Source: a virus
Taxonomy: Duplodnaviria; Heunggongvirae; Uroviricota; Caudoviricetes
IMG/VR virus record: IMGVR_UViG_2526164629_000027
Strand: one strand, 5' to 3'
DNA length: 37,247 bases
Made by a program: the position numbers and the translations under genes. Shown piece by piece: positions 1 to 37,247 of the stretch. How positions within the stretch are numbered: position 1 is the first letter of the stretch; every line of letters starts with the position of its first letter. The notes under the pieces were generated by a model. The model did no database searches, was not told the origin of the DNA, and saw only the letters and a list, made by a program, of their open reading frames with translations.

Positions 1-1002
1 TTACCCTCTATTGTCAAAAGGGTTCAATTCAACAGCAGCCTCTAAATGACCTGGAGCAAAATGCGCATAACGCATAGTCATTTTTATATCGCTATGCCCC
101 AGTATTTTTTGCAACACAAGAATATTTCCGCCCCGCATCATAAAATGACTGGCAAACGTGTGACGTAGCACATGAGTTAATTGCCCATCAGGAAGCTCGA
201 TCTTCGCTCTCTTAATTGCAGCGTCAAAAGCCTCATAACATGGTGAAAATAGCGCTCCTCGTTTTTTAGGAAGCATAGCCTGCAATTGAGGTGAAATCGG
301 TACAGTGCGGTTCTTCTTTCCTTTAGTTTTAACAAATGTGATTCGACCGGGCAGTACTTGAGATTGCTTTAATCCTTCTGCTTCACTCCACCGAGCACCC
401 GTCGCAAGCCCAATACGGACAACAACCCCCAAATCTTTATTCCGTGACTCATCACACGCAATCAGAAGGCGCTCAATCTCATCTACATACAGAAACGCCA
501 GTTCCTTTTCTTCCTCACGAAACTTGCGAATACCAGTCAGGGGGTTTTCACCAGACCACTCCCCAAGGCGCTTCAGTTCGGCAAAAACAGCATGTAGATA
601 TGACTGCTCGCGATTAACGGTTGCTTCACTAAGTTTTTTCTTCCCCTTGGGATTCCATTCTCCAGATAGCCTTCTTTCCCGATAAGTAGCAAACATATTT
701 TTGTCAAACTGAGAAGCAAATGGATCTCCCAGCCTGGAACAAATCGCCTCAAGTTTGACTTTGCGCTCTGCACCAGAGGACAAGGTTTTACCGTACATCT
801 CAAACCAACGAGCAATCAACTCAGAAAGACGAGGACCAGAACCATCTTGAAACTCGTCTCCAACTCTACTATTCATTAAACGGCGCTCATAAGAGAGCGC
901 CTCACTTTTTGTCGCAAACTGTTTACGTATGCGTTTTCCCGATGCCCCGTAGGGATAACATTCGCAAAGCCATTTACCTGATGGAATCTTACGAACCGAC
1001 AT
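1..1002 (-). CDS. int: Tyrosine integrase, coliphage 186/P2 family
   Basis: 333 aa; N-terminus MSVRKIPSGKW and C-terminal catalytic region (TGARWSEA, HVLRHTFASHFMM, MTMRYAHF) closely resemble phage 186 Int as I recall it; ATG at 1000-1002. Confidence 0.9.
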   Translation of the reverse strand: MSVRKIPSGKWLCECYPYGASGKRIRKQFATKSEALSYERRLMNSRVGDEFQDGSGPRLSELIARWFEMYGKTLSSGAERKVKLEAICSRLGDPFASQFDKNMFATYRERRLSGEWNPKGKKKLSEATVNREQSYLHAVFAELKRLGEWSGENPLTGIRKFREEEKELAFLYVDEIERLLIACDESRNKDLGVVVRIGLATGARWSEAEGLKQSQVLPGRITFVKTKGKKNRTVPISPQLQAMLPKKRGALFSPCYEAFDAAIKRAKIELPDGQLTHVLRHTFASHFMMRGGNILVLQKILGHSDIKMTMRYAHFAPGHLEAAVELNPFDNRG

Positions 1003-1007
1003 TTTAG

Positions 1008-1355
1008 TTACTTATCACATAAATCAAATGCAGCCTTAGTGACATCCCCCAGACTCTTTTTTAACCCTGGGGCGGCATCATTATCTAGCCAAAATGGATT
1101 ATTGTTATCTAACGGTAACGCACCAAATGTTTTACCTTTTATTCGAGCCAAACCTGTAAGTGCATATAACTTATTATCGTCAAAATTCATCACATAAGGA
1201 TTACCATCAAGACACTGTAATTGAACCTCATCAGTATTAAATGGCCATACCCCATTGAAACTCTCACGTTCAATAGTTTTAAAAGGCATTGCGAGGGCGG
1301 AAAAAGAAAACATAGATAAAAAAGTAACTAATAGTTGAACCTTTTTTACTTTCAT
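1008..1355 (-). CDS. Hypothetical secreted protein (N-terminal signal peptide), lysogeny-operon cargo
   Basis: 115 aa ORF with hydrophobic signal-like N-terminus (LLVTFLSMFSFSALAMP); AT-rich; lies between repressor and int on the same strand, 6 nt upstream of int. Confidence 0.6.
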   Translation of the reverse strand: MKVKKVQLLVTFLSMFSFSALAMPFKTIERESFNGVWPFNTDEVQLQCLDGNPYVMNFDDNKLYALTGLARIKGKTFGALPLDNNNPFWLDNDAAPGLKKSLGDVTKAAFDLCDK

Positions 1356-1384
1356 ATCATTACCTCAATTTAGCTCAAGTAAGA

Positions 1385-2035
1385 TTACAAATTAAAAAAC
1401 GCCCTAGAAATAACACCTCCTACCAAAACCCCTACGCAGATAAAGAATATTATTTCTTTTGGATAAAGTCGGATTAATTCTGAAGCACGAAGTCGGACTT
1501 CTGGTAAGGTCGAACTCTCTGTGTGGCTTGATGCCGATTGTTGCTCTAACCACGACAATGCAGACTGTAACTGAGAACGAGTAAGATCGTTTAAACGTCC
1601 TGTACCGAAATTGATATGGCAATACCGCAGAAGTTTTTGTCGAAGTCCACAGTCTTCACTGTTACGTAGTAATAAACTTACAAGAGCCTTACAGGCATCA
1701 TGATCTTTACATCGCTCAAGCATTGCATGCAGAAAACTCTCCGCTGTTTTATATTGATTTACTGTCATATCATCAATACCAGCTACACCAATCTCCGCAT
1801 GTACTTTTTGCCAAATAATAAACGCTTCAGTATTGCTAGCTTCTGCAATAGCAGCAACCAAGCTATTTAGCTCCTTACGCTGAGCCTTAAGCAAAGGGCG
1901 ATCGTCATCATCATTATTCGAAGGGATTGCGATATTGACGGTCTGAGAACCATCATATCGCTCTATCTGAATATTCTTTTCGTGAAAATCACGCCCAGCA
2001 ACGCGATTGTTTGAACCGTTTGAGTTGACGGCCAT
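1385..2035 (-). CDS. Hypothetical protein with C-terminal transmembrane anchor, lysogeny-operon cargo
   Basis: 216 aa ORF; strong SD (GGGAGGTG) before the ATG at 2033-2035; C-terminal hydrophobic helix (IIFFICVGVLVGGVI); acidic DDDD stretch; AT-rich. Confidence 0.6.
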   Translation of the reverse strand: MAVNSNGSNNRVAGRDFHEKNIQIERYDGSQTVNIAIPSNNDDDDRPLLKAQRKELNSLVAAIAEASNTEAFIIWQKVHAEIGVAGIDDMTVNQYKTAESFLHAMLERCKDHDACKALVSLLLRNSEDCGLRQKLLRYCHINFGTGRLNDLTRSQLQSALSWLEQQSASSHTESSTLPEVRLRASELIRLYPKEIIFFICVGVLVGGVISRAFFNL

Positions 2036-2050
2036 GTCACCTCCCTACTA

Positions 2051-2455
2051 TCACCTACCCTTAGTTTCGTTATAGTCACGACCAGCGATACGGTTTTTAC
2101 CACCAGAAATATTTAACTCACGTCCTGATGGCTGAGTTTCCTTTTCACTGATCGCACCTTTTAAAGCCCCAATCACCGCGTTTTTCACATCTAACGAAGC
2201 TGCTCGAAAGCGAGTAATCAACTCCTGCTCATCATCGTTATAAGTTTCAGGTGAGTGAATTCCCAACACAACATACTGAACATCAAGGCCAAAACGAGAC
2301 AGCGCTGCCAAATACGCAGCATCAGGAAAGCTATCTCCTTTCTCATATCTAAGCTGAGTTAGCTTTTTGACTCCACCAATGTCGCTCATGGCAACTTGAC
2401 TAAGTCCCAATCTTTCCCTTTCCTCACGCAACCGCTGACCAATATCATTTTTCAT
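2051..2455 (-). CDS. CI-like immunity repressor (XRE-family helix-turn-helix)
   Basis: 134 aa; N-terminal HTH signature (IGQRLREERERLGLSQVAMSDIGGV...YEKG); located between int-side genes and the divergent early operon, the position of the 186/P2 repressor. Confidence 0.8.
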   Translation of the reverse strand: MKNDIGQRLREERERLGLSQVAMSDIGGVKKLTQLRYEKGDSFPDAAYLAALSRFGLDVQYVVLGIHSPETYNDDEQELITRFRAASLDVKNAVIGALKGAISEKETQPSGRELNISGGKNRIAGRDYNETKGR

Positions 2456-2530
2456 ACAAAAACCTTGACAGGTATCTTTTTTGATACCAAAATGATTTCA
2501 CGAGCTATTAGATGATCACAATATACCACT
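2456..2530. promoter_or_regulatory. Immunity switch region: candidate early promoter and operator
   Basis: TTGACA at 2465-2470, then a 6-bp inverted repeat GGTATC-N6-GATACC (2471-2488) in the spacer, then a -10-like CAAAAT; a further ATACC half-site near 2523; sits between the repressor start and the first rightward gene. Confidence 0.5.
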
Positions 2531-2753: not shown

Positions 2754-2957
2754 ATGTCAGGTATAACCATCAATATCAATGTGAATGCCCCCTATGTATC
2801 CCTGCAGAAATATGCAGAGATAACAGGTATCCCTCTTAATACATGCAAAAAGATGTTGGCTGACGGTCGAATAATTATCCGCCCCAAACGCGCCAAAATG
2901 GAAAAGCCTGAAGTAAACCTTGTGGCGATGTTAAAAGACGCTTTGGCTAACAGCTAA
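2754..2957 (+). CDS. Small putative DNA-binding (excisionase/Cox-like) protein
   Basis: 67 aa; SD GGAGG upstream; helix-turn-helix-like segment (LQKYAEITGIPLNTCKKMLADGRIII). Confidence 0.5.
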   Translation: MSGITININVNAPYVSLQKYAEITGIPLNTCKKMLADGRIIIRPKRAKMEKPEVNLVAMLKDALANS

Positions 2958-2978
2958 AACAATGAACAGAGCACCATC

Positions 2979-3329
2979 ATGAAAAAAAACGCTAATAATC
3001 CATACTCCAAATTTCGTAATGGCGTAGAACGCCATGTACACCACGTCGCTACCTGTGCATCACGTAGTAACAGTCGCTATAACCTGAACGAGACGCACGC
3101 AACACCGGATGGCCACGCTGTAAAACAAATCGGCGAGCATGCCTGGCTGATTGAGAAAGCTGGAATCGTGGTCCACAAATGCCCACGCAATCCGTTTACC
3201 GGAAACCGCATTTTTGCATTGAACTGCGGCGACAATCACTTCGGGCAGGATTTCACATTATACGAAGCACTTCGCACGGTTGATCGTCTGCTTCGCGGGC
3301 AAAGTTTTATTAAACAGGCTGATTTATAA
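2979..3329 (+). CDS. Hypothetical early protein
   Basis: 116 aa ORF in the co-directional early operon; no recognisable motif. Confidence 0.5.
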   Translation: MKKNANNPYSKFRNGVERHVHHVATCASRSNSRYNLNETHATPDGHAVKQIGEHAWLIEKAGIVVHKCPRNPFTGNRIFALNCGDNHFGQDFTLYEALRTVDRLLRGQSFIKQADL

Positions 3330-3339
3330 CAGGTGCTTT

Positions 3340-3618
3340 ATGACCAAAGAGCATGCACAAGGTGTATTTATCCGTTTTATTGATTTTCGCGGTGAACTGT
3401 TATTACGCGCATCAGCCATTGACGGAGTTGTTCCATCCGAAAAAAACGCAGCTACTTACGTTTATCTGAACGGTACGCGCCTGACTGTGGAGCTTCCGTA
3501 CCAGACCGTACGAGAAATCATTAGCGAAGCTGAAAAGGCACGTCAGGTTAATGGCGATGAACCCTATATCGAAATTATTTGTATGGATTCAGAAGCTGAA
3601 ATTCAGAAAGCAGATTAA
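3340..3618 (+). CDS. Hypothetical early protein
   Basis: 92 aa from the internal ATG at 3340 (the listed ORF start at 3280 would overlap the previous gene); AGGTG upstream. Confidence 0.5.
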   Translation: MTKEHAQGVFIRFIDFRGELLLRASAIDGVVPSEKNAATYVYLNGTRLTVELPYQTVREIISEAEKARQVNGDEPYIEIICMDSEAEIQKAD

Positions 3619-3629
3619 AGGGCGTTGCG

Positions 3630-3872
3630 ATGGGCAAAGAATATAAAACTCTCATTAACAAAGCACTTGAACGATTTTATTTTCGCTTAAGTGCATCAGG
3701 CGCTCATGCTGAACATGCAGCCCGTGACTCATTGACCAGGGCAATCCGGAGTTTGTATGACGTTGCTTTTTACGCTGATGATCTGGATGCACTGAACGAA
3801 CTTTCCGAGCTGATCTGTGCCGCAGAATGCGGGGAACACATTGAACCGTATAAGCTGGGGAATATCGCATGA
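3630..3872 (+). CDS. Hypothetical early protein
   Basis: 80 aa ORF, tightly packed in the operon. Confidence 0.5.
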   Translation: MGKEYKTLINKALERFYFRLSASGAHAEHAARDSLTRAIRSLYDVAFYADDLDALNELSELICAAECGEHIEPYKLGNIA

Positions 3873-3982
3873 GTATATTTATCTCATGGCTTGTTCTGAT
3901 TATTTCGGTGGCCTGCGCCATTGGGATTATGCGAATTATTCATTCAGTAAAAAAGATTGAACGCTTTTTCACTGACAAATAA
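3869..3982 (+). CDS. Small hydrophobic membrane peptide (37 aa)
   Basis: ATG overlaps the previous stop (ATGA coupling); translation MSIFISWLVLIISVACAIGIMRIIHSVKKIERFFTDK is one TM helix plus a basic tail; below the ORF-track size cutoff. Confidence 0.35.
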   Translation: MSIFISWLVLIISVACAIGIMRIIHSVKKIERFFTDK

Positions 3983-4115
3983 TAGCTTAAACAAAACACC
4001 AGATTAAACCCGAAAACCTGAAAACTATCCGCATTCGCGGAGGTATTCGCACACGTAAATAACGGAGATATAAAATGAACGCAAAAGAAAAAATATTATC
4101 AATACATTAAAAATA

Positions 4116-4490
4116 GTGTCAGCAGAGCAAGACAAGCTGTCCAGGGCAGCCCAGAAAGATAATCAACATATGGCAGCGCTTTACGCACTGACCATCGCAA
4201 TAGCCACCTCTGAAGCAGCCAAAATTATTGAGGAACAGGGCAAAGAAATCGACACTCTTAAAACACAGTCAACAGTTGCAGCCATGAATCCGTCCAGCAT
4301 TGGACGCCGCATTTACATTCTTGGTTCGGCAATAATGACGCAATACACCATTATTGCCGAACTGCACGGCAACTACCTGATAACGCCTTACCACACAAAA
4401 GAGTCAGAGCTTCTGACAAATCTCCGCCTGATAGAACGATCTCAAGCTGTATTCATTGATGACGCGCAACGTGCCGTATTTCACGCATAG
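4116..4490 (+). CDS. Hypothetical early protein
   Basis: 124 aa ORF with GTG start; preceded by an 11-codon mini-ORF (4075-4110) with a strong SD; the true start may be the ATG at 4170. Confidence 0.45.
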   Translation: MSAEQDKLSRAAQKDNQHMAALYALTIAIATSEAAKIIEEQGKEIDTLKTQSTVAAMNPSSIGRRIYILGSAIMTQYTIIAELHGNYLITPYHTKESELLTNLRLIERSQAVFIDDAQRAVFHA

Positions 4491-4513
4491 GGTTACTGGA
4501 CAAAGGGGGCGCA

Positions 4514-4717
4514 ATGGCAATTAAGCATTTTCCCATCATTCGCTTTACCTCCAGAGGGCGCGAATACGAGGTCGACGAACGCCTGATTACCACTATCGAC
4601 AAACATCGTTCAGAAAAGGATGCACACCACATCTACCTCACTGACGGCACTTACTTCTGCGCCACCAACGTGGCGCGGGTGAATCTTATCCGACAGGTAC
4701 AGGAGCCACGCAAATGA
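4514..4717 (+). CDS. Hypothetical early protein
   Basis: 67 aa ORF with SD AAGGGGG upstream. Confidence 0.5.
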   Translation: MAIKHFPIIRFTSRGREYEVDERLITTIDKHRSEKDAHHIYLTDGTYFCATNVARVNLIRQVQEPRK

Positions 4718-4980
4718 CCATTCTGGACTACATCACTACACATCCGGGTTGTAGCGGCGGAGAAATCGCCGCAGCACTGAACACCCCAACCACAGCTATT
4801 AATGCTGAGTTACGCCGACTTTGGCGCAGCGGCTTAGTCATCAGAACAAACCGCAGCACAGGTGGTCGCGCTCGCAAAACTGGAGGCCAGGCTTCTTACC
4901 ACGTAAACCCGATGCCGTTCGGGTGTAGCAATCCACTTACTCACATGTTTAACCAGCTACTGAAGGAAGCCAGAACATGA
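4714..4980 (+). CDS. Hypothetical protein, possible winged-helix DNA-binding
   Basis: 88 aa; start overlaps the previous stop (ATGA); segment GEIAAALNTPTTAINAELRRLWRSGLV resembles a wHTH. Confidence 0.5.
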   Translation: MTILDYITTHPGCSGGEIAAALNTPTTAINAELRRLWRSGLVIRTNRSTGGRARKTGGQASYHVNPMPFGCSNPLTHMFNQLLKEART

Positions 4981-5276
4981 GCACCATCAACCACCAGAAG
5001 CTACGCGAACTGGCATTTGCCCTGCAACGAATGGCAACTCCTCAAAAATTACTGGCATTTCGCGTAATGCTCTCGCCGTCTGCTGTGCTGGCACTGCTGG
5101 ATCAGCTGGAGCACGCCAAAACCACGGCTCCTGCCATTCGCCTGACGCTCCATCATGAAATCGCTGATTTCTGCGCAACGCTGGGGGCACCTGGCGAACC
5201 GGAAACGCCGGAAGCAATGCAGCAAGAGCTGCTGCAACGCATTGACAAGGTTTTTGATTTTTTTCTGAACCAGTAA
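4977..5276 (+). CDS. Hypothetical early protein
   Basis: 99 aa ORF; start overlaps the previous stop. Confidence 0.5.
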   Translation: MSTINHQKLRELAFALQRMATPQKLLAFRVMLSPSAVLALLDQLEHAKTTAPAIRLTLHHEIADFCATLGAPGEPETPEAMQQELLQRIDKVFDFFLNQ

Positions 5277-5598
5277 GAAACCAGAACATGCACACACAAA
5301 AAAACCGCTTGCCATGTCGCAATCAGTCAGGTTACATTTCCGCTGCACCTCACAAAACGGGTGTCGGGTTTCGCAGCCTGCTGACTACACAAGCGCACAA
5401 CCGCGCCAGCGGTTTTTTTGTGCGTACTGTATTGCCACGTTTTTTTCGCGTCAGAATTATGGCGGGGCGTACGGGGCCGACTTCGGTCGGGCCGGGTTCT
5501 TGTGTAGCCGGTACTGCGAACCTCGTACGTCTCGCCACCCACAGTTTCGCAGCTCTGGATGGTGAGTTTTCACAACTTACTACACAAGGGGCCACACC

Positions 5599-5829
5599 AT
5601 GGCAAACCGCAAACCACACCGCGCTATCGCGGAGCGTCGTCACATCCAGACTGAAATCAACCGCAGACTTTCCCGCGCATCACGCGTCGCGCAAATCATG
5701 CACATCAATATGCTGCATGAGCGCAGCCACGCACTATCAAACATTTATTCCGCCTCTGTTTACAGCTATCTGGCGAATGATCTGCACGAGCTTCAACAGC
5801 TCATCCAGCAGCAAAACAAACACCATTAA
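5599..5829 (+). CDS. Hypothetical small protein
   Basis: 76 aa ORF with AGGGG-type SD; follows a 320-bp structured non-coding stretch. Confidence 0.4.
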   Translation: MANRKPHRAIAERRHIQTEINRRLSRASRVAQIMHINMLHERSHALSNIYSASVYSYLANDLHELQQLIQQQNKHH

Positions 5830-5901
5830 TTCCTGTTCCGGGCCTTTCCTGCACCTTGCGGCGGGAGGCCTTCGCACATCTGTAACAAGAGGATTGCCGC
5901 A

Positions 5902-6267
5902 ATGATTCTCGCCAACGACTTTCTTGAATACCTGCTCAACACAGAACGTGATCTTGCCGCTCGCGTGCGTGATCGTTATGACATGTACCTGAAATCCCTG
6001 CCTGTACCGCAACTCGCTGACGGAAAAATTGTTATTGATGGTCGCTACATGATCGACAGCCACGAGGGAAATTACAGGCTTTACCGCATTGAAGGTGGCA
6101 CCCCGTCCGTTATTGGCATTTACCAGCGCCCATCCTCTGCAATCGTCGATGTGATTGCCGACAGCATCCGCATCACACATCGCCATGCCGACACAGAAGA
6201 CACCGTGCTGGAAATTCAGCGGCTGGCTACCGTCTGCCGCGACACCCTGAATGGCATGACGAAGTAA
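5902..6267 (+). CDS. Hypothetical protein immediately upstream of the replication gene
   Basis: 121 aa ORF with SD AAGAGG; ends 6 nt before gene A. Confidence 0.55.
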   Translation: MILANDFLEYLLNTERDLAARVRDRYDMYLKSLPVPQLADGKIVIDGRYMIDSHEGNYRLYRIEGGTPSVIGIYQRPSSAIVDVIADSIRITHRHADTEDTVLEIQRLATVCRDTLNGMTK

Positions 6268-6273
6268 ATCACT

Positions 6274-9021
6274 ATGACGGCAGAGTACATCAGGGACTGG
6301 CAACAACCGCGCCACGCCGTGGGGCGTGAAGGAACGGGGATCCCCGCTCCTGAATCCGCGCTTTCCTCCTGGCTGGATGCCTACCGGGCAGAGAACGAAC
6401 GCCGCCAGGAAATGGCTGATGCGGCGTTCTCCGCCACGCCGCTGGGCAACCTGATTAATAAAAGCCTGGACGCACAGGAAAAACAGGACAAAACCATCAC
6501 ACTGGCAGGAGACGCCAGAAAACAGGCACGCGGCGCGGTGGATGAAGCCATGGCCTCGCTGCGCCTGCTGCCGTCCTATCTGCGCGATCCGCTTATTCGC
6601 CACCTCTCCTTCCTGCGCAAAAAACAGGAAGCCGATCGCCGGAAAGGCAAAAAGAGCTGGCAGGCGGAACGCTATGCACGCGGAACCCTGCGCAAAATAT
6701 TCGAACGTCTGGATCGCACTGACGGACACTGGCTGACACCGGGTTATCGCTCCCTTGCCGGACGCGAACGCCTGGACGATTTGCTTTACCTGCCGCAGCT
6801 CAACAAACACCAGATACAGACGCTGGCCACCATGACGGCGGCGATGTTCAGCAGCACCTTCGAAAAACTCTGCGATGGCTTTGGCGCGACCGATGGCGAG
6901 CTGACCATGGATGTAACGCTGAAGGCGTATCAGATGCTGGCCCGCATGGCGTTACACCTGCACGCCATGCCTCCACATTATGACGCACTGACAACAGACA
7001 AAGACCGGAGGAACGAACCAGACACGGAGCTGCTGCCGGGCGCAATCCTTCGCCTGACCTGTGCGGAATGGTGGAAACGCAAACTGTGGCTGTTACGTTG
7101 CGAGTGGAGAGAAGAACAACTCCGCGCCGCCTGTCTGGTTTCCAGAAAAACATCACCCTATCTGAGCCAGGACGCGTTAAGCGAGTTTCGCGCACAGCGC
7201 GAGAAAACACGCGATTTCCTGAAAAGTTTCATGCTAGAAAATGAAGACGGGTTCACGATTGATCTCGAGACGGTGTATTACGCGGGAGTAAGTAACCCGG
7301 TTCACCGTAAGGCAGAAATGATGGCCACCATGAAGGGACTGGAACTTCTGGCCGAAGCCCGTGGCGACAGAGCGGTGTTTCTGACTGTCACCTGCCCGTC
7401 AAAATACCACGCAACAACGGAGAACGGTCATCCGAACCCCAAATGGAACGGGGCCACCATGCGCGACTCCAGCGATTACCTGGTTAACACGTTTTTTGCG
7501 GCAGTCCGCAAAAAACTGAACCGCGACGGTCTGCGCTGGTATGGCATCCGCACGGTGGAGCCTCACCATGACGGCACCGTGCACTGGCATATGATGGTCT
7601 TTGCTCATCCGGAAGAAATCGACAGCATCGTGGCCATCACCCGCGATATTGCCATTCAGGAAGACCGCCACGAGCTGGGCAATGATATTACTCCGCGCTT
7701 TAAGGTGGAGTATGTCGACGGCTCAAAAGGCACACCAACCAGCTATATCGCGACCTACATCGGAAAAAACCTGGACAGCCGCGCCGTGGATGGCATCGAC
7801 CCGAAAACGGGCAAGCCACGCGTTGACCACGAAACCGGAAAATCAATGGCCGAGAGCGTGGAACGCGCCATCGGCTGGGCGCGCCTTCACCGGGTCCGCC
7901 AGTTCCAGTTCTTTGGTATCCCCTCCCGTCAGGTGTGGCGTGAACTGCGCCGCCTTGCCAGCCAGATGGCACGCAACCCGGAAGGCCCGCAACGGCTGAA
8001 GGATGACGCAATGGACGCGGTACTCGCTGCCGCTGATGCCGGATGTTTTGCCACCTACATTGAGAAACAGGGTGGCGTACTTGTTCCACGCAAAGACTAC
8101 CTGATTCGCACCGCCTACGACCTCGCAGATGAGCTGAACGATTACGGTGAACAGAGCGTACAGATTTACGGGATCTGGTCGCCGCTCATTGGGGAGTCTT
8201 CCCGCGTATGCACGCATCCGGATAACTGGAAGCTGGTAAGACGCAAACCGGAAGCGGAAGACAGCGCCCGCGAAAATGGTTTTGACCTTCAGGGCGGCCC
8301 TGCCGCCCCTTGGACTCGTGGCAATAACTGTCCCCGTGTACAGGAAACGGACAACAACGGGACAGAACAGCCGGAAGAACGGCCAGCACCGTGGCCGCGG
8401 CTTCCTGAAGGCGTTGACGTGAATGAATGGATGCGCTCACTGAAACGGCACGAACGCCGGGCACTGATGCGTTCGCTGCGTGACAAACAGGCAAAAAACA
8501 GCAGTGATGAAATGCAGAACTGGACACAGAGCCGCAAACAGCCACAGCCTTTGCCTGATAACCACGAGTTACTCGCTAAAGAATGGCGGGAGTCTGCTGA
8601 ATCTCTCGGCCTGCATATCGGTGAACAGCAGATGCAGCACCTGTTACGAGGCGGCAGTCTGTACGTTGGCGGCAGCATCATTGCACCGCAGGGATTTGAA
8701 ATTGTACGCAAACAGGATACCCGCCCGGACAGCCGAATCACGCAGCTCTGGCAACGCCTGAGTCGTAATCACGGCGTAAGCAGCACGGAGATCCGCCATA
8801 ACCCGGTCGCCAGCTATCTGGAACAACTAGAGGCATCAGACCCTGAAGCCGCCGCACGCCTGGCATCCACACTTCAGCAAGACCAGAACACCATGAAAAC
8901 ACCCGTTACCGTACTTTCTGACATGCTGCGCGCCATCCGCGACGCAGAGCACGCACAGAGAATCAGTGAAACCACTAAACATGCTCGCAAAAAAATCAGT
9001 TTATTGCATCGAACACGATAG
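6274..9021 (+). CDS. A: Replication initiation protein A (rolling-circle HUH endonuclease, P2 gpA family)
   Basis: 915 aa; HUH-type motif (HWHMMVFAH) and a tyrosine-pair motif (YIATYIGKN) characteristic of the P2 A family. Confidence 0.9.
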   Translation: MTAEYIRDWQQPRHAVGREGTGIPAPESALSSWLDAYRAENERRQEMADAAFSATPLGNLINKSLDAQEKQDKTITLAGDARKQARGAVDEAMASLRLLPSYLRDPLIRHLSFLRKKQEADRRKGKKSWQAERYARGTLRKIFERLDRTDGHWLTPGYRSLAGRERLDDLLYLPQLNKHQIQTLATMTAAMFSSTFEKLCDGFGATDGELTMDVTLKAYQMLARMALHLHAMPPHYDALTTDKDRRNEPDTELLPGAILRLTCAEWWKRKLWLLRCEWREEQLRAACLVSRKTSPYLSQDALSEFRAQREKTRDFLKSFMLENEDGFTIDLETVYYAGVSNPVHRKAEMMATMKGLELLAEARGDRAVFLTVTCPSKYHATTENGHPNPKWNGATMRDSSDYLVNTFFAAVRKKLNRDGLRWYGIRTVEPHHDGTVHWHMMVFAHPEEIDSIVAITRDIAIQEDRHELGNDITPRFKVEYVDGSKGTPTSYIATYIGKNLDSRAVDGIDPKTGKPRVDHETGKSMAESVERAIGWARLHRVRQFQFFGIPSRQVWRELRRLASQMARNPEGPQRLKDDAMDAVLAAADAGCFATYIEKQGGVLVPRKDYLIRTAYDLADELNDYGEQSVQIYGIWSPLIGESSRVCTHPDNWKLVRRKPEAEDSARENGFDLQGGPAAPWTRGNNCPRVQETDNNGTEQPEERPAPWPRLPEGVDVNEWMRSLKRHERRALMRSLRDKQAKNSSDEMQNWTQSRKQPQPLPDNHELLAKEWRESAESLGLHIGEQQMQHLLRGGSLYVGGSIIAPQGFEIVRKQDTRPDSRITQLWQRLSRNHGVSSTEIRHNPVASYLEQLEASDPEAAARLASTLQQDQNTMKTPVTVLSDMLRAIRDAEHAQRISETTKHARKKISLLHRTR

Positions 9022-9066
9022 AAATATAGAGCTAAGGCCGCCCTAGGAATAAGGAGGCCTTGAAAA

Positions 9067-9876
9067 TCAACCTATCTTCTTATGAAGTAAAATTAATTTC
9101 TGTATTAATTTGGAATGAAACATAGATATATCAGAAATTCTTATTTCATTAGGCGAGTCTATATGATTGGAAACTTCTTCCTCCAAGGAGTCACAAATAC
9201 TTTCTAGATTTTCAATATCTGCATTTAATTCTGGAAAACTATTAAACAAATATAATGAATCCCGTAACTCTCCTAGTTTTGGTAAAAGAGTATTACTGAA
9301 TACACTAAGAAATTCCTCTTCTGATAATGCCATGGAGTTTTTAAAATTTTGCACAACATCGAATGCCAACCCATTAATTTTAGGCATAATTACTTCTCTT
9401 ACCCAATACCCTTCATTAATAGCTTCTTTACGTTCTTTTCTATGTTGAACACAAGGAATAACAAAGGATGAAACTAAAGCAAATAAAGAGATGCCAATAG
9501 AAATCCACTCTGGACCATTTTCCGGAACCTTTACAATATTATATATATCATAGGAATTTGGAACATCTTTGAAATAATTAGCAAATAAATCTTTTTTGTT
9601 ATCCCTTGCCAGAGATAACTTATGAAAGGTGTCGTTTGCCTTTTCACAAAACATCAAGCCATCATTCGGGTTTCCGGATAACAAAAACGGTGATGATATA
9701 CCACCAAGTCCTGAATCGGAAATATAAAAAGGCGTGTTTGGATAAAGTGACTCATTACATTCAATGTTTTCTTTGTTGGAAAAATCTGTCACAGAGCAAG
9801 CTGCGGGGAATATAAAAAAAATGACAGACAGCGCTGTCATTTTGATTTGAAAAATATTTTTAAAAGAAGGGAACAT
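9067..9876 (-). CDS. Cargo gene d: bitopic membrane protein (signal/lipoprotein-like N-terminus, central TM helix), unknown function
   Basis: 269 aa; about 30% GC; N-terminal hydrophobic segment ending in Cys (VIFFIFPAAC), central TM (WISIGISLFALVSSFVIPCV), acidic C-terminal domain; overlaps the end of gene c by 17 nt. Confidence 0.6.
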   Translation of the reverse strand: MFPSFKNIFQIKMTALSVIFFIFPAACSVTDFSNKENIECNESLYPNTPFYISDSGLGGISSPFLLSGNPNDGLMFCEKANDTFHKLSLARDNKKDLFANYFKDVPNSYDIYNIVKVPENGPEWISIGISLFALVSSFVIPCVQHRKERKEAINEGYWVREVIMPKINGLAFDVVQNFKNSMALSEEEFLSVFSNTLLPKLGELRDSLYLFNSFPELNADIENLESICDSLEEEVSNHIDSPNEIRISDISMFHSKLIQKLILLHKKIG

Positions 9877-10204
9877 TTTTATGTAAGCCTCTCCTTACAG
9901 CTCTATCTAATTCAGAAAGCATACCTTCTTTATATTCACGACCATCAAGTACAGTGCGACTATAAAATTCGCTAGGCGAAGAAAATTTCGGCAAAACCGT
10001 TTCAAGCATACCTAGAAAGTATGAGCTTGATACAACAATTCCCTTGGGGATCAATAGATATAATCTATCATTACTGGTTGTGCAAAATTTCCCTATATTA
10101 AAGTAATCATAGGCTTGGCGCCCATTAGAACGTCCTGCAAAAAGTTTCTTGTTACTATCTTTTACTAACTTATTGAAATCTATGGTGATGTCAGCCATTT
10201 TCAT
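9860..10204 (-). CDS. Cargo gene c: small protein with a STAS-like (anti-sigma-antagonist-like) Ser motif
   Basis: 114 aa; ATG with SD GAGGA; segment GIVVSSSYFLGML resembles the conserved phospho-Ser region of SpoIIAA/RsbV-type STAS domains (recognised by eye only). Confidence 0.55.
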   Translation of the reverse strand: MKMADITIDFNKLVKDSNKKLFAGRSNGRQAYDYFNIGKFCTTSNDRLYLLIPKGIVVSSSYFLGMLETVLPKFSSPSEFYSRTVLDGREYKEGMLSELDRAVRRGLHKNVPFF

Positions 10205-10214
10205 GTACCTGTCC

Positions 10215-11282
10215 TCAAGTTCGCTGGGTGGCGTTTTCTGGTAGAGGAAAACGAATATTGATCATAACTCCAGGAAATCGAGCATCCTTCATACGCTTAA
10301 GATAGTTGCGATCCGGTTCAGATTCAAGCCCTACATCATTAAAAGGGTAAGTAAAAATGTCACTTTCCTCGTCATTAACCAACCTTTGCTTTAATTTATA
10401 TGATCCATCAAAGTTAATATGAGTACTACCAGATATTAAAGTCATTTTTATCCCACCTTTAATATCTCTTCCCATTTTTTTAAGATTATCATGCATATCT
10501 TGAAATAACTTCAATAATTCAATTGTTCCGGTGCCAGAACTGTCAGTTTCTTTCTCGTTTTTACAACTCACCCGCCCTTGCAAGGCCGCTACTGTTGTTA
10601 ATCCTTCCTTAAACATACCCTTTTTCTTAATATGCTTATTTATGTATGGATTAACTTGTTGACTTAATGAAAAATGATCCTCAGGTAAATTATCAAAAGT
10701 TTCGCTGATAGTTTTCCCAAAATTGAAAACAGCCAACTCACATATGGGGTTTCGTACGTTATTATTAACAAAACCTCTCAAATACCAGCGTGGGCGTTGC
10801 TCTAACCCACAATGCCGCTCCGCATTATCAAGGAGTTCCCCCATGCAGGAAGTTAAATGCTTTTCTGCCTCATGTACAAGTTTTAAATTATGATCATTTA
10901 AGCATTCGTTTATGTATGCGGTAAATTTTTCAGCAGTGACATTTTTTCTGTCATGGGCAAAGGCAGAAGCATTCTCCTTTCCGATACTATCAGCAGAGAA
11001 GATTCGTTTCTTCGGATTCGCTTTTTTCGATGCTTCAGTAGAGTCCAGAACTTTACCTGGTGCAGCATTACTAATCTCTTTTACAAGCCCGACATCCCTG
11101 ATAATTTCAAGATACTGTTCATCTTTAGGGTAGATACCATTAATCTGAATCATCGTATCTTTGAAATTTATATTACTTTGCCTTGCTGCTGTAAGAGCAA
11201 CACCTAATAGACACTCAAGACCAAGACAGTGTTTTTGTTTTCTTGTAATCAAAAATATATGATTTCCATTTACCTCTTGCAA
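10215..11282 (-). CDS. Cargo gene b: GHKL (histidine-kinase-like) ATPase-domain protein
   Basis: 355 aa as listed (TTG start); the first in-frame ATG is at 11153; N-box-like GELLDNAERH (ExxxNAxxH) and Gly-rich DSSGTGTIELL segment; AT-rich. Confidence 0.55.
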   Translation of the reverse strand: MQEVNGNHIFLITRKQKHCLGLECLLGVALTAARQSNINFKDTMIQINGIYPKDEQYLEIIRDVGLVKEISNAAPGKVLDSTEASKKANPKKRIFSADSIGKENASAFAHDRKNVTAEKFTAYINECLNDHNLKLVHEAEKHLTSCMGELLDNAERHCGLEQRPRWYLRGFVNNNVRNPICELAVFNFGKTISETFDNLPEDHFSLSQQVNPYINKHIKKKGMFKEGLTTVAALQGRVSCKNEKETDSSGTGTIELLKLFQDMHDNLKKMGRDIKGGIKMTLISGSTHINFDGSYKLKQRLVNDEESDIFTYPFNDVGLESEPDRNYLKRMKDARFPGVMINIRFPLPENATQRT

Positions 11283-11688
11283 TTAATTTTGTGGCAGCAC
11301 TAATAAATAGCAGAGATTTCTCTGGATTGTCATATAAGTCAAAATATTTAGGTATTAATATCTTCTCTGCGTCACGACGAAGAATTGATGAGTCATACTC
11401 TTTTATAATCGATATATTTTCAATGAACGTAGCGACTTGGTTTTGGACAGGAGTTGTTTCATCGGAAAAACGAAGACTACCATTTTTCTCTTGCGCAGGC
11501 TTTTTTTTCTTAGCTCTCTCAACGCTACGAAGAAATCGCAACCATCCACGTAAAAAGGTTCTTTTAGAATCTTCTTTATTGATTTTTTTCATTTCCAAAT
11601 GTTCCTGCAAAGTTAACGTAGCCCACAAGGCGCTAAGTATACTTTCTGCTATATTTTTTTCACTATACAAATGCACAATAGTGCACAA
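11215..11688 (-). CDS. Cargo gene a: small basic protein, or N-terminal part of gene b if the two are one frameshifted ORF
   Basis: 157 aa from TTG, or 125 aa from the ATG at 11590-11592; Lys-rich; overlaps gene b by 68 nt in the -1 frame across several A/T runs. Confidence 0.4.
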   Translation of the reverse strand: MCTIVHLYSEKNIAESILSALWATLTLQEHLEMKKINKEDSKRTFLRGWLRFLRSVERAKKKKPAQEKNGSLRFSDETTPVQNQVATFIENISIIKEYDSSILRRDAEKILIPKYFDLYDNPEKSLLFISAATKLIARGKWKSYIFDYKKTKTLSWS

Positions 11689-11700
11689 ATTTGCACAATT
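11671..11700. repeat. Three TGCACAA direct repeats at 10-bp phasing at the 5' end of the cargo operon (candidate operator)
   Basis: Plus strand reads aTGCACAAtagTGCACAAattTGCACAAtt; the repeats also create short palindromes (TGCAC-N4-GTGCA on the gene strand). Confidence 0.5.
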
Positions 11701-27029: not shown

Positions 27030-27635
27030 CTATTTATACAATACAACACCGCTCTTTTTAGTTATATATGTGCAGTTCGATGGTATATCTTTATTTATAA
27101 AAGACATTGCACCTATTTTTACATTATCCCCAATTTTACGTGATAATCCAATGATGCAACAATTAGCTCCGATATCAACGTTACTACCAATTTTTACTCT
27201 TGAACCAGGCATGTCACCATCTATCTGTCCAATGGTAGTATTCTGTCGTAACACCAGATTTTCACCAGCATCAACAGCAAAATGAACAACAATTCCAGCA
27301 TGATGGGGAATTGTTAACCCTTTTCCAATATTTGCGCCCAATCCAATTTCACAACCAAATTTGTTAATTATTTTACTGTTCAACTTTTTGGCTGCTTTCT
27401 TATGTAATTTATTACCATTAATATACATTTCGTTAGCCAACCGCCACCAGAAAAGGAAATTCCGGTTACGCTGTTTTTTCTCTCTTAAAAGCCTCCAGAT
27501 ATCCATACGTTTCCGCCGAATTACTTCATATTTCCAGAAGTTTTTTAAATTAGTAGAGTTCCCAAATAAAACAAAGTGAATTGCCATTAAGTAAGACAGC
27601 ACGATAATCTCCTTAATTATTATTTCAGACCACAC
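27030..27635 (-). CDS. Hexapeptide-repeat acyl/acetyltransferase (left-handed beta-helix family), cargo gene
   Basis: 201 aa (GTG start; alternative ATG at 27587); hexapeptide-like repeats (IGANCCIIGLSRKIGDNVKIG, IGQIDGDMPGSRVKIGSNVDIG); markedly AT-rich. Confidence 0.75.
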   Translation of the reverse strand: MWSEIIIKEIIVLSYLMAIHFVLFGNSTNLKNFWKYEVIRRKRMDIWRLLREKKQRNRNFLFWWRLANEMYINGNKLHKKAAKKLNSKIINKFGCEIGLGANIGKGLTIPHHAGIVVHFAVDAGENLVLRQNTTIGQIDGDMPGSRVKIGSNVDIGANCCIIGLSRKIGDNVKIGAMSFINKDIPSNCTYITKKSGVVLYK

Positions 27636-36698: not shown

Positions 36699-37247
36699 TC
36701 ACTGATCAAGCAAATCTGCACGCGCAGCGCTCAAATATTGCAACATTGACCACAGAGTCAGTACCGCAGCCACAAAGAAAAGTGCAATACCGGCGTACTC
36801 AACCCAAATGTTCGGACGCCACAGCAGCCAGGCCAACGCCACCATCTGGGCAGTGGTTTTCACTTTCCCAATCCAAGAGACAGCCACGCTACTGCGTTTA
36901 CCCAACTCCGCCATCCATTCGCGTAGCGCAGAAATAATAATTTCACGGGCGATCATCGTTGCCGCCGGTAGGGTCACCCACCAGCTGTGATAATGCTCGG
37001 TTACCAGCACCATGGCGATAGCCACGAGAACTTTATCTGCTACAGGGTCAAGGAAAGCACCAAACCGGGTACTCTGGTTCCAGCGGCGTGCCAGAAAACC
37101 ATCGAACCAGTCAGTCACCGCCGCGACGCAGAAAATGAGCGCGGCGGCAAACGGCGACCAGGTGACAGGCAGATAAAAGACCAATACAAAGAATGGGATA
37201 AGGATGACACGGAACAGTGTAAGCAACGTAGGGATATTAAATTGCAT
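36699..37247 (-). CDS. pgsA: CDP-diacylglycerol--glycerol-3-phosphate 3-phosphatidyltransferase
   Basis: 182 aa; translation [21 protein letters not shown]...[10 protein letters not shown] matches enterobacterial PgsA as I recall it; sits upstream of glyW-cysT-leuZ as in E. coli. Confidence 0.85.

Follow-up and report, generated by a model that had tools for sequence, protein, structure and literature searches.

An inner-membrane protein encoded beside a prophage immunity repressor begins with a peptide resembling the end of the repressor

The window analysed here (the whole stretch of DNA, 37,247 nt), from a P2-like prophage of E. coli, contains two genes, ORF216 and ORF115, between an immunity repressor gene and an integrase gene. 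Our analysis showed that the first approximately 18 residues of ORF216, a predicted tail-anchored inner-membrane protein, resemble the last approximately 18 residues of the repressor, and that the two peptides co-vary among related phages. In the explanation that best accommodates the whole locus, ORF216 is a membrane-anchored partner of the repressor and ORF115 is exchangeable cargo; we put the chance that this explanation is correct at about even.

The four genes are closely packed on the minus strand in the order repressor (2051..2455), ORF216 (1385..2035), ORF115 (1008..1355), and int (1..1002), with successive gaps of 15, 29, and 5 nt. The last of them, which begins 5 nt beyond the ORF115 stop codon, encodes a tyrosine integrase of 333 aa (Pfam Int_N and Phage_integrase). 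The coordinates, strand, and order of the two ORFs thus confirm an earlier note on this DNA, which had placed them on the repressor strand between repressor and int. Good Shine-Dalgarno sequences are present at both ORFs (GGAGG and GAGGT, respectively), and a scan of the minus strand of the operon found no terminator-like site and a single weak promoter-like site, located within ORF115. Because the gaps are short, terminator-like sites are absent, and the lone promoter-like site is weak, co-transcription of ORF216 and ORF115 with the repressor is the natural reading, and the operon structure suggests that both would be expressed in the lysogen. Upstream of the repressor, the divergent switch region (2456..2530) separates it from Arc-like and Cox-like early genes and presumably contains the lysogenic promoter and operators. 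This region has a promoter-like site on the plus strand (2465-2493) and the direct repeats ATACCAAAATGA and ATACCACTATGA, which lie 39 nt apart.

At the 15-nt junction between the repressor and ORF216 (2036..2050, minus strand), reading of the sequence showed that the repressor stop codon TGA is followed by in-frame TAG TAG and then by the ribosome-binding site of ORF216. These three in-frame stop codons therefore rule out a simple read-through fusion of the two proteins. The reading-frame relation between repressor and ORF216 varies among loci, and in the IMG/VR sample described below the partner gene starts between a 4-nt overlap with the repressor and 42 nt after its stop codon. Translational coupling of the repressor and the partner gene is suggested because the two genes are closely spaced or overlapping.

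In the repressor (134 aa; matched by Pfam HTH_31/HTH_3 and PHROG repressor families), an XRE-type HTH occupies residues 1-65 (AlphaFold pLDDT >90) and is followed by a pair of helices at residues 74-105 (about 80) and by a C-terminal tail at residues 105-134 that is disordered (34-47). A motif in this tail, L114-E130 (LNISGGKNRIAGRDYNE; 2066..2116, minus strand), aligns with the N-terminus of ORF216 and is kept among repressors with differing HTH types. ORF216 itself (216 aa, ATG start) belongs to the Flk_N family: it matched PHROG 5825 (phrog_5825) with an E value of 7e-103, and Flk_N (PF27202) has precomputed matches on P0001, a protein 99% identical to ORF216, and on all close homologues. 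Searching PDB sequences with a profile of the ORF216 family returned nothing meaningful. The protein begins with the head motif V3-E19 (VNSNGSNNRVAGRDFHE; 1979..2029, minus strand), in which the tail motif of the repressor is copied. Residues N10, R11, G14, R15, and D16 of the head are unchanged in 18/18 homologues, and AlphaFold models the head of the monomer as disordered (pLDDT about 40). The Flk_N helical domain follows (residues about 45-166; 1538..1903, minus strand) and then a C-terminal transmembrane anchor (residues 192-214; 1394..1462, minus strand). The anchor had been proposed earlier and was borne out by an AlphaFold helix at these residues and by a hydrophobicity scan, in which the hydrophobic window begins at about residue 190. 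ORF216 has no signal peptide, and its predicted topology is that of a single C-terminal anchor with a cytoplasmic N-terminal domain.

In the window, head and tail align with a score of 56 (z = 8.0 against shuffles), and at related loci z ranges from 7 to 16. In an unbiased sample of 80 loci from IMG/VR, for which the repressor HTH was the bait, each distinct type of repressor that has a Gly-rich tail, and for which a downstream ORF could be scored, was followed by a neighbour whose N-terminus resembles that tail; loci L064 and L115 are truncated, and their downstream ORFs were not callable. The six tail-less repressor homologues in this sample had no such neighbour. The match gave z values of at least 6 for most variants and 3.3 for one, and in L097 it was recognizable only by eye. 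Over 11 motif variants (among them NRxAGRD, FNG..GQF, VFHGxVxGG, VFHGQVGQ, and GITQVG), cognate pairs scored 445, whereas permuted pairs scored 291 +/- 28 (p about 2e-5), and the cognate partner ranked top in 7 of the 11 rows; co-variation was weak or not detectable by score for L097, L027, and L032. The head is the constant part of the partner protein, the remainder of which differs among phages and may consist of Flk_N with a transmembrane segment, a Cys-rich form with two transmembrane segments (B3 ORF20 and Ps59 gp18), or Flk_N alone. Despite strong conservation, both the head and the tail peptide are modelled as disordered in the monomers; the class A motif carries charged residues (R, D, and E). 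Because codons differ at 221 of the 378 identical head/tail residues (58%), the match is, as judged from codon usage, maintained at the protein level. A DNA-level repeat behind the motif, such as an operator, a recombination site, or a product of gene conversion, was rejected on account of the synonymous differences between the copies.

In 16 of 17 genome loci the gene directly after the repressor is an ORF216 homologue, and an ORF216-type gene also follows every tailed repressor among the non-redundant IMG/VR loci. The order repressor, Flk_N gene, variable gene, and int was found in Klebsiella, E. coli, and 12 other Enterobacterales genera, among which ORF216 is 60-77% identical, and variant forms of the repressor-partner pair also occur in Mu-like phages of Pseudomonas and Burkholderia. 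The module is present in 521 of 5426 complete E. coli genomes, many of them O157:H7; the Klebsiella-type ORF216 protein is indexed on >1,000 contig blocks, and homologues are common in Klebsiella. A single Flk_N-like gene, that of Ralstonia YO077_2, lacks an adjoining repressor. The GC content of ORF216 (41.2%; window, 50.8%) is near that of its operon neighbours, the repressor (44.0%) and int (45.1%). These comparisons indicate that ORF216 is a conserved lineage gene, not cargo. Because its adjacency to the repressor is fixed, its identity is 60-77%, its GC content is neighbour-like, and the shared peptide co-varies, the evidence points to a role within the immunity module rather than that of a free lysogenic-conversion gene.

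The alternative that survives best is the one proposed in the earlier note, namely that both genes are independent lysogenic-conversion, superinfection-exclusion, or defence cargo on the repressor transcript. ORF216 would then act from the cytoplasmic side of the inner membrane to stop incoming phage DNA or to block some other process, and would leave the repressor untouched. The location is the same as that of known exclusion genes, for example, glo of K139, and in Gram-positive phages sie genes are located between the repressor and int. In addition, ORF216 is a membrane protein with a weak relative, PHROG 6521, that is labelled moron membrane protein, and ORF115 does behave as cargo. However, ORF216 stays beside the repressor while the adjoining slot turns over, its base composition does not set it apart from its neighbours, and the PADLOC defence-system models gave zero matches for ORF216 and for ORF115. 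The co-varying head and tail peptides and their pattern of presence and absence are also left unexplained, and we regard the cargo explanation of both genes as possible but unlikely. The conservation of ORF216 in its lineage, a finding that the earlier note had recognized as contrary to its reading, tells against that reading in part, for this gene; for ORF115, which is AT-rich, occupies a variable slot, and has precedents in K139 and PSP3, the cargo reading stood.

The slot between the ORF216 homologue and int contains at least seven unrelated gene families across 14 sister prophages. Within the operon, ORF115 has the highest AT content, and its GC content (35.3%) falls in the bottom 5% among windows of equal size; the AT-richness previously ascribed to both genes is thus only partly borne out, the GC content of ORF216 being close to that of its operon neighbours. 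By these indications, the slot, which adjoins int on its upstream side, is hypervariable, and ORF115 is ordinary exchangeable cargo within it. Homology searches placed ORF115 (115 aa, ATG start) in the periplasmic DUF2511/YebY family. It scored 28.3 bits against Pfam PF10709 (gathering threshold, 21; profile positions 2-87 of 87), matched phrog_2950 with an E value of 4e-39, and matched the YebY structure 7n0j in the PDB with an E value of 3e-3, with the Trp and both disulfide Cys residues (Cys48 and Cys113) aligned. NCBIfam gave no ORF115 match, and the ORF115 family is small (18 clusters). Reading of the N-terminus revealed basic MKVKK, a hydrophobic stretch, and a cleavage-type site between ALA and MP, and residues 1-22 (MKVKKVQLLVTFLSMFSFSALA; 1290..1355, minus strand) are a predicted signal peptide. 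This signal-like N-terminus, the PF10709 score above the gathering threshold, and the YebY match uphold the earlier description of the 115-aa protein as secreted, and members of the YebY family are periplasmic (PMC8689200).

Several phages have a comparable arrangement. Vibrio phage K139, of the P2 family, has two extra genes on its lysogenic transcript, in the order cI, orf2, glo, and int, and its Glo protein, which is int-proximal, periplasmic, and annotated for phage exclusion, holds the position of ORF115. The K139 genes were rejected as homologues: Glo matched ORF115 with an E value of only 6.8, and orf2 encodes a BRCT-domain protein, not Flk_N. Salmonella phage PSP3 (orf28; gene order cI, DUF2511, and int) and phage SEN1 have DUF2511 between cI and int, and the PF10709 members PSP3 orf28, SEN1, E. 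coli YebY, and MlbQ have a signal peptide and a conserved disulfide pair like those of ORF115, which is about 29% identical to PSP3/YebY-type family members. PSP3 differs from the present locus in having a 186-type cI and no Flk_N gene. To our knowledge, P2 itself has no genes between C and int, as had been stated earlier; PSP3 and K139 show that this does not extend to Peduoviridae generally.

The neighbours of ORF115 are ORF216 and int, not the AZY (yobA-yebZ-yebY) copper operon. YebY works alongside the CopC/CopD-type proteins YobA and YebZ (PMC11923076), counterparts of which are absent at this locus. About half of the DUF2511/YebY family lies outside AZY operons, and yebY homologues between a recombinase and a phage CI repressor have already been recorded (PMC8689200). 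By analogy, the most likely site of action of ORF115 is the periplasm, where it would serve either in exclusion, like K139 Glo, or in ligand or copper handling, like YebY and MlbQ.

A second alternative concerns the shared peptide, which could be a signal to a third party, such as a degron for the host proteases FtsH, Lon, or ClpXP, with ORF216 setting the stability of the repressor as a decoy or competitor located at the membrane. Like degrons, the two peptides are terminal, disordered, and conserved, and the membrane location would place a decoy beside FtsH; the protection of CII from FtsH by lambda CIII provides a precedent. However, recognition by a host factor needs no mutual match, yet the copies co-vary, and a single host genus has phages with three different motif variants (Burkholderia phages KS10, BcepMu, and FUB5a). 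We consider this explanation rather improbable.

The Flk_N domain raises the further alternative that ORF216 is a phage copy of Flk that alters the substrate switch of flagellar type III export and thereby changes the motility or flagellin display of the lysogen. Flk (RflH) of Salmonella and E. coli has a Flk_N helical domain and a C-terminal tail anchor from which the protein faces the cytoplasm, as does ORF216, and some sources call the homologues 'flagella biosynthesis regulator', although such names look like annotation transfer. Flk is a chromosomally encoded protein of about 330 aa with a Pro-rich N-terminus and two Flk_N units, whereas ORF216, encoded in a prophage immunity operon, has 216 aa, a repressor-like head, and one unit, which aligns to both Flk repeats with 23-25% identity. 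Its match to the NCBIfam Flk model NF007987 (58.3 bits; E value, 7.8e-16) covers residues 35-166 only and lies far below the equivalog cut-off of 353 bits. Head-bearing relatives without any Flk_N domain also exist, and the link to the repressor would be unexplained, making a flagellar role very unlikely. Finally, an old duplication or gene fission could have left head and tail similar but without function, with gene conversion between the neighbouring repeats preserving the similarity. The copies are separated by only about 80-100 nt and, in several loci, share a reading frame. We nevertheless find this alternative scarcely credible, since the frame relation is not conserved, the similarity persists across lineages whose partner proteins are just 23-28% identical overall, and the codon differences at 58% of the identical residues mean that conversion is not homogenizing the DNA.

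In the preferred explanation, that of a membrane-anchored repressor partner, ORF216 would act as the second gene of the immunity operon, and its product would be held in the inner membrane by the C-terminal anchor, with the Flk_N domain and the disordered head facing the cytoplasm. We infer that ORF216 contacts the repressor directly because the peptides are similar rather than complementary, co-vary by lineage, and differ within one host genus. Head and tail might pair as in-register beta structure, following the logic of amyloid-type signalling motifs; alternatively, the head might mimic the tail and compete for its docking site on the repressor. By either route ORF216 would tether, sequester, or switch the repressor at the membrane and would be a membrane-anchored lysis-lysogeny modulator, either an anchor or a conditional anti-repressor, made in step with the repressor. 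ORF115 would be transcribed with the operon and secreted as an exchangeable protein of the YebY family.

Besides the weak co-variation of three variants, the Ralstonia gene that lacks an adjoining repressor, and the charge of the class A motif, two further points weigh against this explanation. A partner that inactivates the repressor and is made in step with it would be self-defeating unless its action is conditional. The other concerns O157 Sakai prophage Sp13, which appears to carry the module, as judged from an O157:H7 relative. Sp13 is inducible by mitomycin C through a mechanism that the authors who described this called unresolved, and the O157 Sp13 relative has a P4-epsilon-like 'derepression' gene that could explain induction without ORF216 (PMC2669165).

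The arrangement is similar to that of amyloid motif pairs (fungal HET-S/NWD2, bacterial BASS, and Bab/Agp BASS11), in which a peptide of about 20 residues is located at the C-terminus of the upstream protein and the N-terminus of the downstream protein, and the head and tail peptides are likewise Gly/Asn-rich and disordered in monomer models. In the E. coli prophage Bab/Agp system, the products of adjacent genes have a C-terminal/N-terminal signalling motif in common (bioRxiv 10.1101/2024.11.07.622273). However, the amyloid pairs connect an NLR/STAND-type or other sensor with a pore-forming or membrane-targeting cell-death effector, whereas the pair described here consists of an HTH repressor and a Flk_N tail-anchored protein; moreover, the head/tail motif is more charged than amyloid signalling motifs. 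HTH repressors were not mentioned in the amyloid-signalling literature that we searched.

The proposed logic, in which a partner binds a regulator, is also that of several known systems. Transcription factors are sequestered at the membrane in the anti-sigma RseA/sigma-E and Mlc/PtsG cases, and the phage anti-repressors P22 Ant, 186 Tum, and P4 epsilon bind regulators. ORF216 has no homology to these proteins beyond weak PHROG matches to Ant-type proteins (E values of 0.004-0.02). The anti-repressors known to us are soluble, are expressed from separate regulated promoters, and copy no peptide of their target.

A broader proposal is that, in P2-like and Mu-like phages of Proteobacteria, a class of temperate-phage repressors is controlled by templated beta-assembly. 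The N-terminus of a membrane-anchored sensor would bear the amyloid-like signalling peptide with which the repressor ends. On a cue from the membrane or envelope, this sensor would nucleate co-assembly, and the repressor would be taken off the DNA or locked at the membrane. We offer this as a speculative proposal that is probably wrong; if true, it would provide for RecA-independent induction or immunity control, and the motif variants would be private 'immunity-like' specificities that insulate co-resident prophages.

Our searches of the literature on Flk and prophages, membrane-anchored anti-repressors, P2-like repressor-int genes, and amyloid/HTH combinations found no account of the head/tail relation or of ORF216 function, and this relation points to a physical link, not described before, that would join the lysogeny switch to the cell membrane. 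We know of no RecA-sensitive cleavage domain in P2-type repressors, and the sensing of cell state by P2-type prophages is understood only in part. The variable cargo slot just upstream of int is a useful place to seek exclusion and defence genes. The conserved anchored protein that copies the repressor tail is a concrete candidate for a link from the envelope to the lysogeny switch, and if the pairing of head and tail proves to be beta-templating, amyloid-type signalling would extend from cell death to transcriptional control.

The repressor gene (2051-2455; 134 aa, XRE-type HTH), ORF216 (1385-2035), ORF115 (1008-1355), and the integrase gene int (1-1002) lie in this order on the minus strand, with intergenic gaps of 15, 29, and 5 nt and good ribosome-binding sites before ORF216 and ORF115. 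No terminator-like site was detected on the minus strand of the operon, and the sole promoter-like site there was weak and located within ORF115. The order, gaps, ribosome-binding sites, and terminator and promoter scan thus confirmed the observation in the earlier note that two genes lie between the repressor gene and int on the repressor strand; their expression in the lysogen is predicted, as follows from the operon structure. Both genes had also been described as AT-rich; GC content was 50.8% for the window, 45.1% for int, 44.0% for the repressor gene, 41.2% for ORF216, and 35.3% for ORF115, and of the two genes, ORF115 alone departs from its neighbours. At 2036-2053, the repressor gene and ORF216 share a reading frame, with TGA TAG TAG and the ORF216 ribosome-binding site intervening; this shared frame was not kept in other loci. 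P2-type repressors bind direct repeats, and the repeats ATACCAAAATGA (2484-2495) and ATACCACTATGA (2523-2534), which are spaced by 39 nt within the divergent promoter region and adjoin a GGTATC-A6-GATACC palindrome, are possible operators.

The result of interest here is a peptide shared by the repressor C-terminus (the tail; ...LNISGGKNRIAGRDYNETKGR in the window) and the ORF216 N-terminus (the head; MAVNSNGSNNRVAGRDFHEKN), whose local alignment score was 56 (z = 8.0), whereas shuffling gave 20.6 +/- 4.4. In the AlphaFold model of the repressor, the tail is disordered (pLDDT 34-47) and follows a confidently predicted HTH and two helices; the tail was common to repressors of different HTH (immunity) types. 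The relation was present in every related genome locus, including those of Pseudomonas and a Xanthomonadales genome, and in Ralstonia P2-like phages. Transposable, Mu-like phages also showed it, and it was found in B3 (ORF18 tail, ISVTGDGNRTAGRDFHE; ORF20 head, IEVTGSNNIVAGRDFIE), KS10 (gp13, GNMVASGSGITQVGS; gp12, GTMSASGFGIIQVAG), and BcepMu (gp17, VFHGSVGQAVKVEG; gp18, EFNKPVGQAIQAGE). Most partners consist of Flk_N and a C-terminal anchor; a minority carry either the head, a Cys-rich segment, and one or two transmembrane segments, or Flk_N with no detectable anchor. B3 ORF20 has two transmembrane segments without Flk_N. The repressor of Pseudomonas carbonaria (locus 2926-4591) carries two tandem tail motifs, GDRNRTAGGDYHE ... 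GSGNRTAGRDYHE, and is followed by two genes, both initiated by a head, one encoding a Cys-rich segment with two transmembrane segments and the other Flk_N with an anchor. In Ralstonia phage RS-AB1 (2509-2901), the 68-aa CDS after the repressor gene is annotated from too late a start; the frame extended upstream opens with the head motif, and this sequence, RFEFHGEVKKVINGT, resembles that of the repressor tail, MVFHGAVGDVKNVSG.

In an IMG/VR sample of 80 loci, collected with the repressor HTH as bait to avoid bias, the gene following a repressor with a Gly-rich tail had a tail-like N-terminus in every distinct type with a scorable downstream ORF, and began between a 4-nt overlap and 42 nt past the repressor stop. 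Most variants scored z = 6-16, and one scored 3.3; the match in L097 was seen by eye only, and in the truncated loci L064 and L115, ORF calling yielded nothing downstream. None of the six tail-less repressor homologues in this sample had a head-bearing neighbour, and int was directly next in one. For 11 motif variants, the scores of cognate pairs summed to 445, compared with 291 +/- 28 for permuted pairings (p ~2e-5), indicating that head and tail co-vary. A DNA repeat as the source of the match was rejected, since among 43 distinct loci the codons differed at 221 of the 378 residues that are identical between head and tail. The existence of the shared, co-varying peptide is solid.

ORF115 matched Pfam DUF2511 (28.3 bits; threshold, 21) and PHROG 2950, and when it was aligned to the crystal-structure sequence of E. 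coli YebY (7n0j), the conserved Trp and the two disulfide-forming cysteines coincided. A typical signal sequence and the match to periplasmic YebY bear out the proposal that it is secreted. YebY resembles the lantibiotic-binding MlbQ and dampens YebZ copper import (PMC8689200, PMC11923076), and yebY homologues with a XerD-type recombinase on one side and a phage CI repressor on the other are already on record in Enterobacteriaceae (PMC8689200). In phage PSP3, orf28, also a DUF2511 gene, occupies the corresponding position between cI and int. Among 14 sister prophages, the slot between the ORF216 homologue and int was empty in one and in each of the others held one of at least seven unrelated genes, including DUF2511, DUF8087-like acidic proteins, a ~290-aa BRCT-like protein, ~243-aa membrane proteins, and a 126-aa secreted protein. 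In Klebsiella (locus positions 5647-6513) and Enterobacter soli (locus positions 4635-5513), the ~290-aa protein has an N-terminal segment similar to the C-terminal, BRCT-type part of orf2 of Vibrio phage K139 (BLASTP E 5e-4). The small family of ORF115 (18 clusters), its PSP3 counterpart, and the gene turnover in the slot mark it as unremarkable, exchangeable cargo at a hot spot: a variable periplasmic protein whose family and type of location are both known. The closest architectural precedent is the periplasmic exclusion protein Glo of K139 (cI, orf2, glo, int), although a comparison detected no homology between Glo and ORF115.

Elsewhere in the window, an AT-rich island (9000-11700; GC 0.32-0.38 vs 0.51 overall) separates the replication gene (6274-9021) from the portal/terminase genes, where the tin/old hot spot is located in P2. 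Its minus-strand ORFs of 269, 355, and 157 aa had no Pfam or PADLOC match and are candidate defence cargo. A 201-aa minus-strand ORF amid the tail genes (27030-27635) matched hexapeptide repeats and may be a surface-modifying moron; its O157:H7 counterpart is annotated as a serine O-acetyltransferase.

ORF216 belongs to PHROG 5825 (E 7e-103), and precomputed database matches also place it in Flk_N (PF27202), a new Pfam family; its own family is small, amounting to 92 clusters among 1.84 billion representatives when clustered at 50% identity. An AlphaFold model built with 18 homologues comprised disordered residues 1-40 (pLDDT ~40), a confident all-helical domain (47-172; pLDDT ~90), and a C-terminal transmembrane helix (192-214), in agreement with the membrane anchor noticed earlier. 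The cargo proposal, which stands for ORF115, fails for ORF216: the protein is 60-77% identical across Enterobacterales genera, its disordered N-terminus is likewise conserved, and its homologues directly follow the repressor at the related loci compared. The protein is a fixed component of the immunity module and a conserved repressor partner. An anchorless Flk_N-like gene of Ralstonia phage YO077_2 (2399-2977), located after a DNA methyltransferase gene and not after a repressor gene, is an exception to this adjacency. That ORF216 and ORF115 are independent exclusion or defence cargo is unlikely, and a degron shared with the repressor, for which ORF216 would be a decoy comparable to lambda CIII, is slightly more doubtful. 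Flk is a tail-anchored flagellar export regulator, and ORF216 residues 45-164 were 23-25% identical to each of its two repeats; however, ORF216 scored 58 bits against an equivalog cut-off of 353, which makes it a paralogue and not Flk, and a Flk-like effect on flagellar export is improbable. None of these three explanations accounts for the head/tail co-variation.

Head and tail are terminal, disordered, similar rather than complementary, under protein-level selection, and change together between phages; three motif variants occurred within Burkholderia phages, that is, inside one host genus. Neither chance nor a host recognition factor readily explains this pattern, and that it is a functionless relic is highly improbable. 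As to the mechanism, we infer from these sequences, as the simplest reading, that the repressor would be in direct, phage-specific contact with its membrane-anchored neighbour. In-register beta stacking needs similarity-based pairing, a genomic pattern that is also diagnostic for amyloid signalling motifs, and head and tail might pair in this way. Such pairing likens them to the E. coli prophage defence pair Bab/Agp, for which an amyloid signalling motif has been demonstrated (bioRxiv 10.1101/2024.11.07.622273). Mimicry of the tail by the head, which would compete for the docking site of the tail on the repressor core, fits equally well. In either case, ORF216 would act on the repressor at the membrane by tethering, sequestering, or switching it, with induction, stabilisation, or immunity control as candidate outcomes. 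We found no published description of this relation in the literature searched.

The window is a complete P2-like prophage and shares ~98% identity with Escherichia phage 520873, a Xuanwuvirus (genus) of the family Peduoviridae. Host pgsA, encoding a CDP-alcohol phosphatidyltransferase, occupies its right end (36699-37247), int its far left, and yecA lies beyond int in related genomes; the prophage therefore fills the window, between yecA and pgsA. In the RefSeq record of phage 520873 (NC_049344, 1039-3065), int is broken into two CDS, and the ORF216 and ORF115 homologues are unannotated and match in three pieces each, which points to frameshifts or errors in sequencing. Of 5426 complete E. coli genomes, 521 carried the same gene block, and many of these 521 were O157:H7; in one O157:H7 strain, it lies beside yecA in a head-less P2-like prophage resembling Sakai Sp13. 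Sp13 is inducible by mitomycin C though its repressor is without a peptidase motif, which its authors left unexplained and tentatively attributed to an epsilon-like derepression gene (PMC2669165). Through this O157:H7 relative, a link between the repressor and ORF216 may be relevant to the induction of Sp13.
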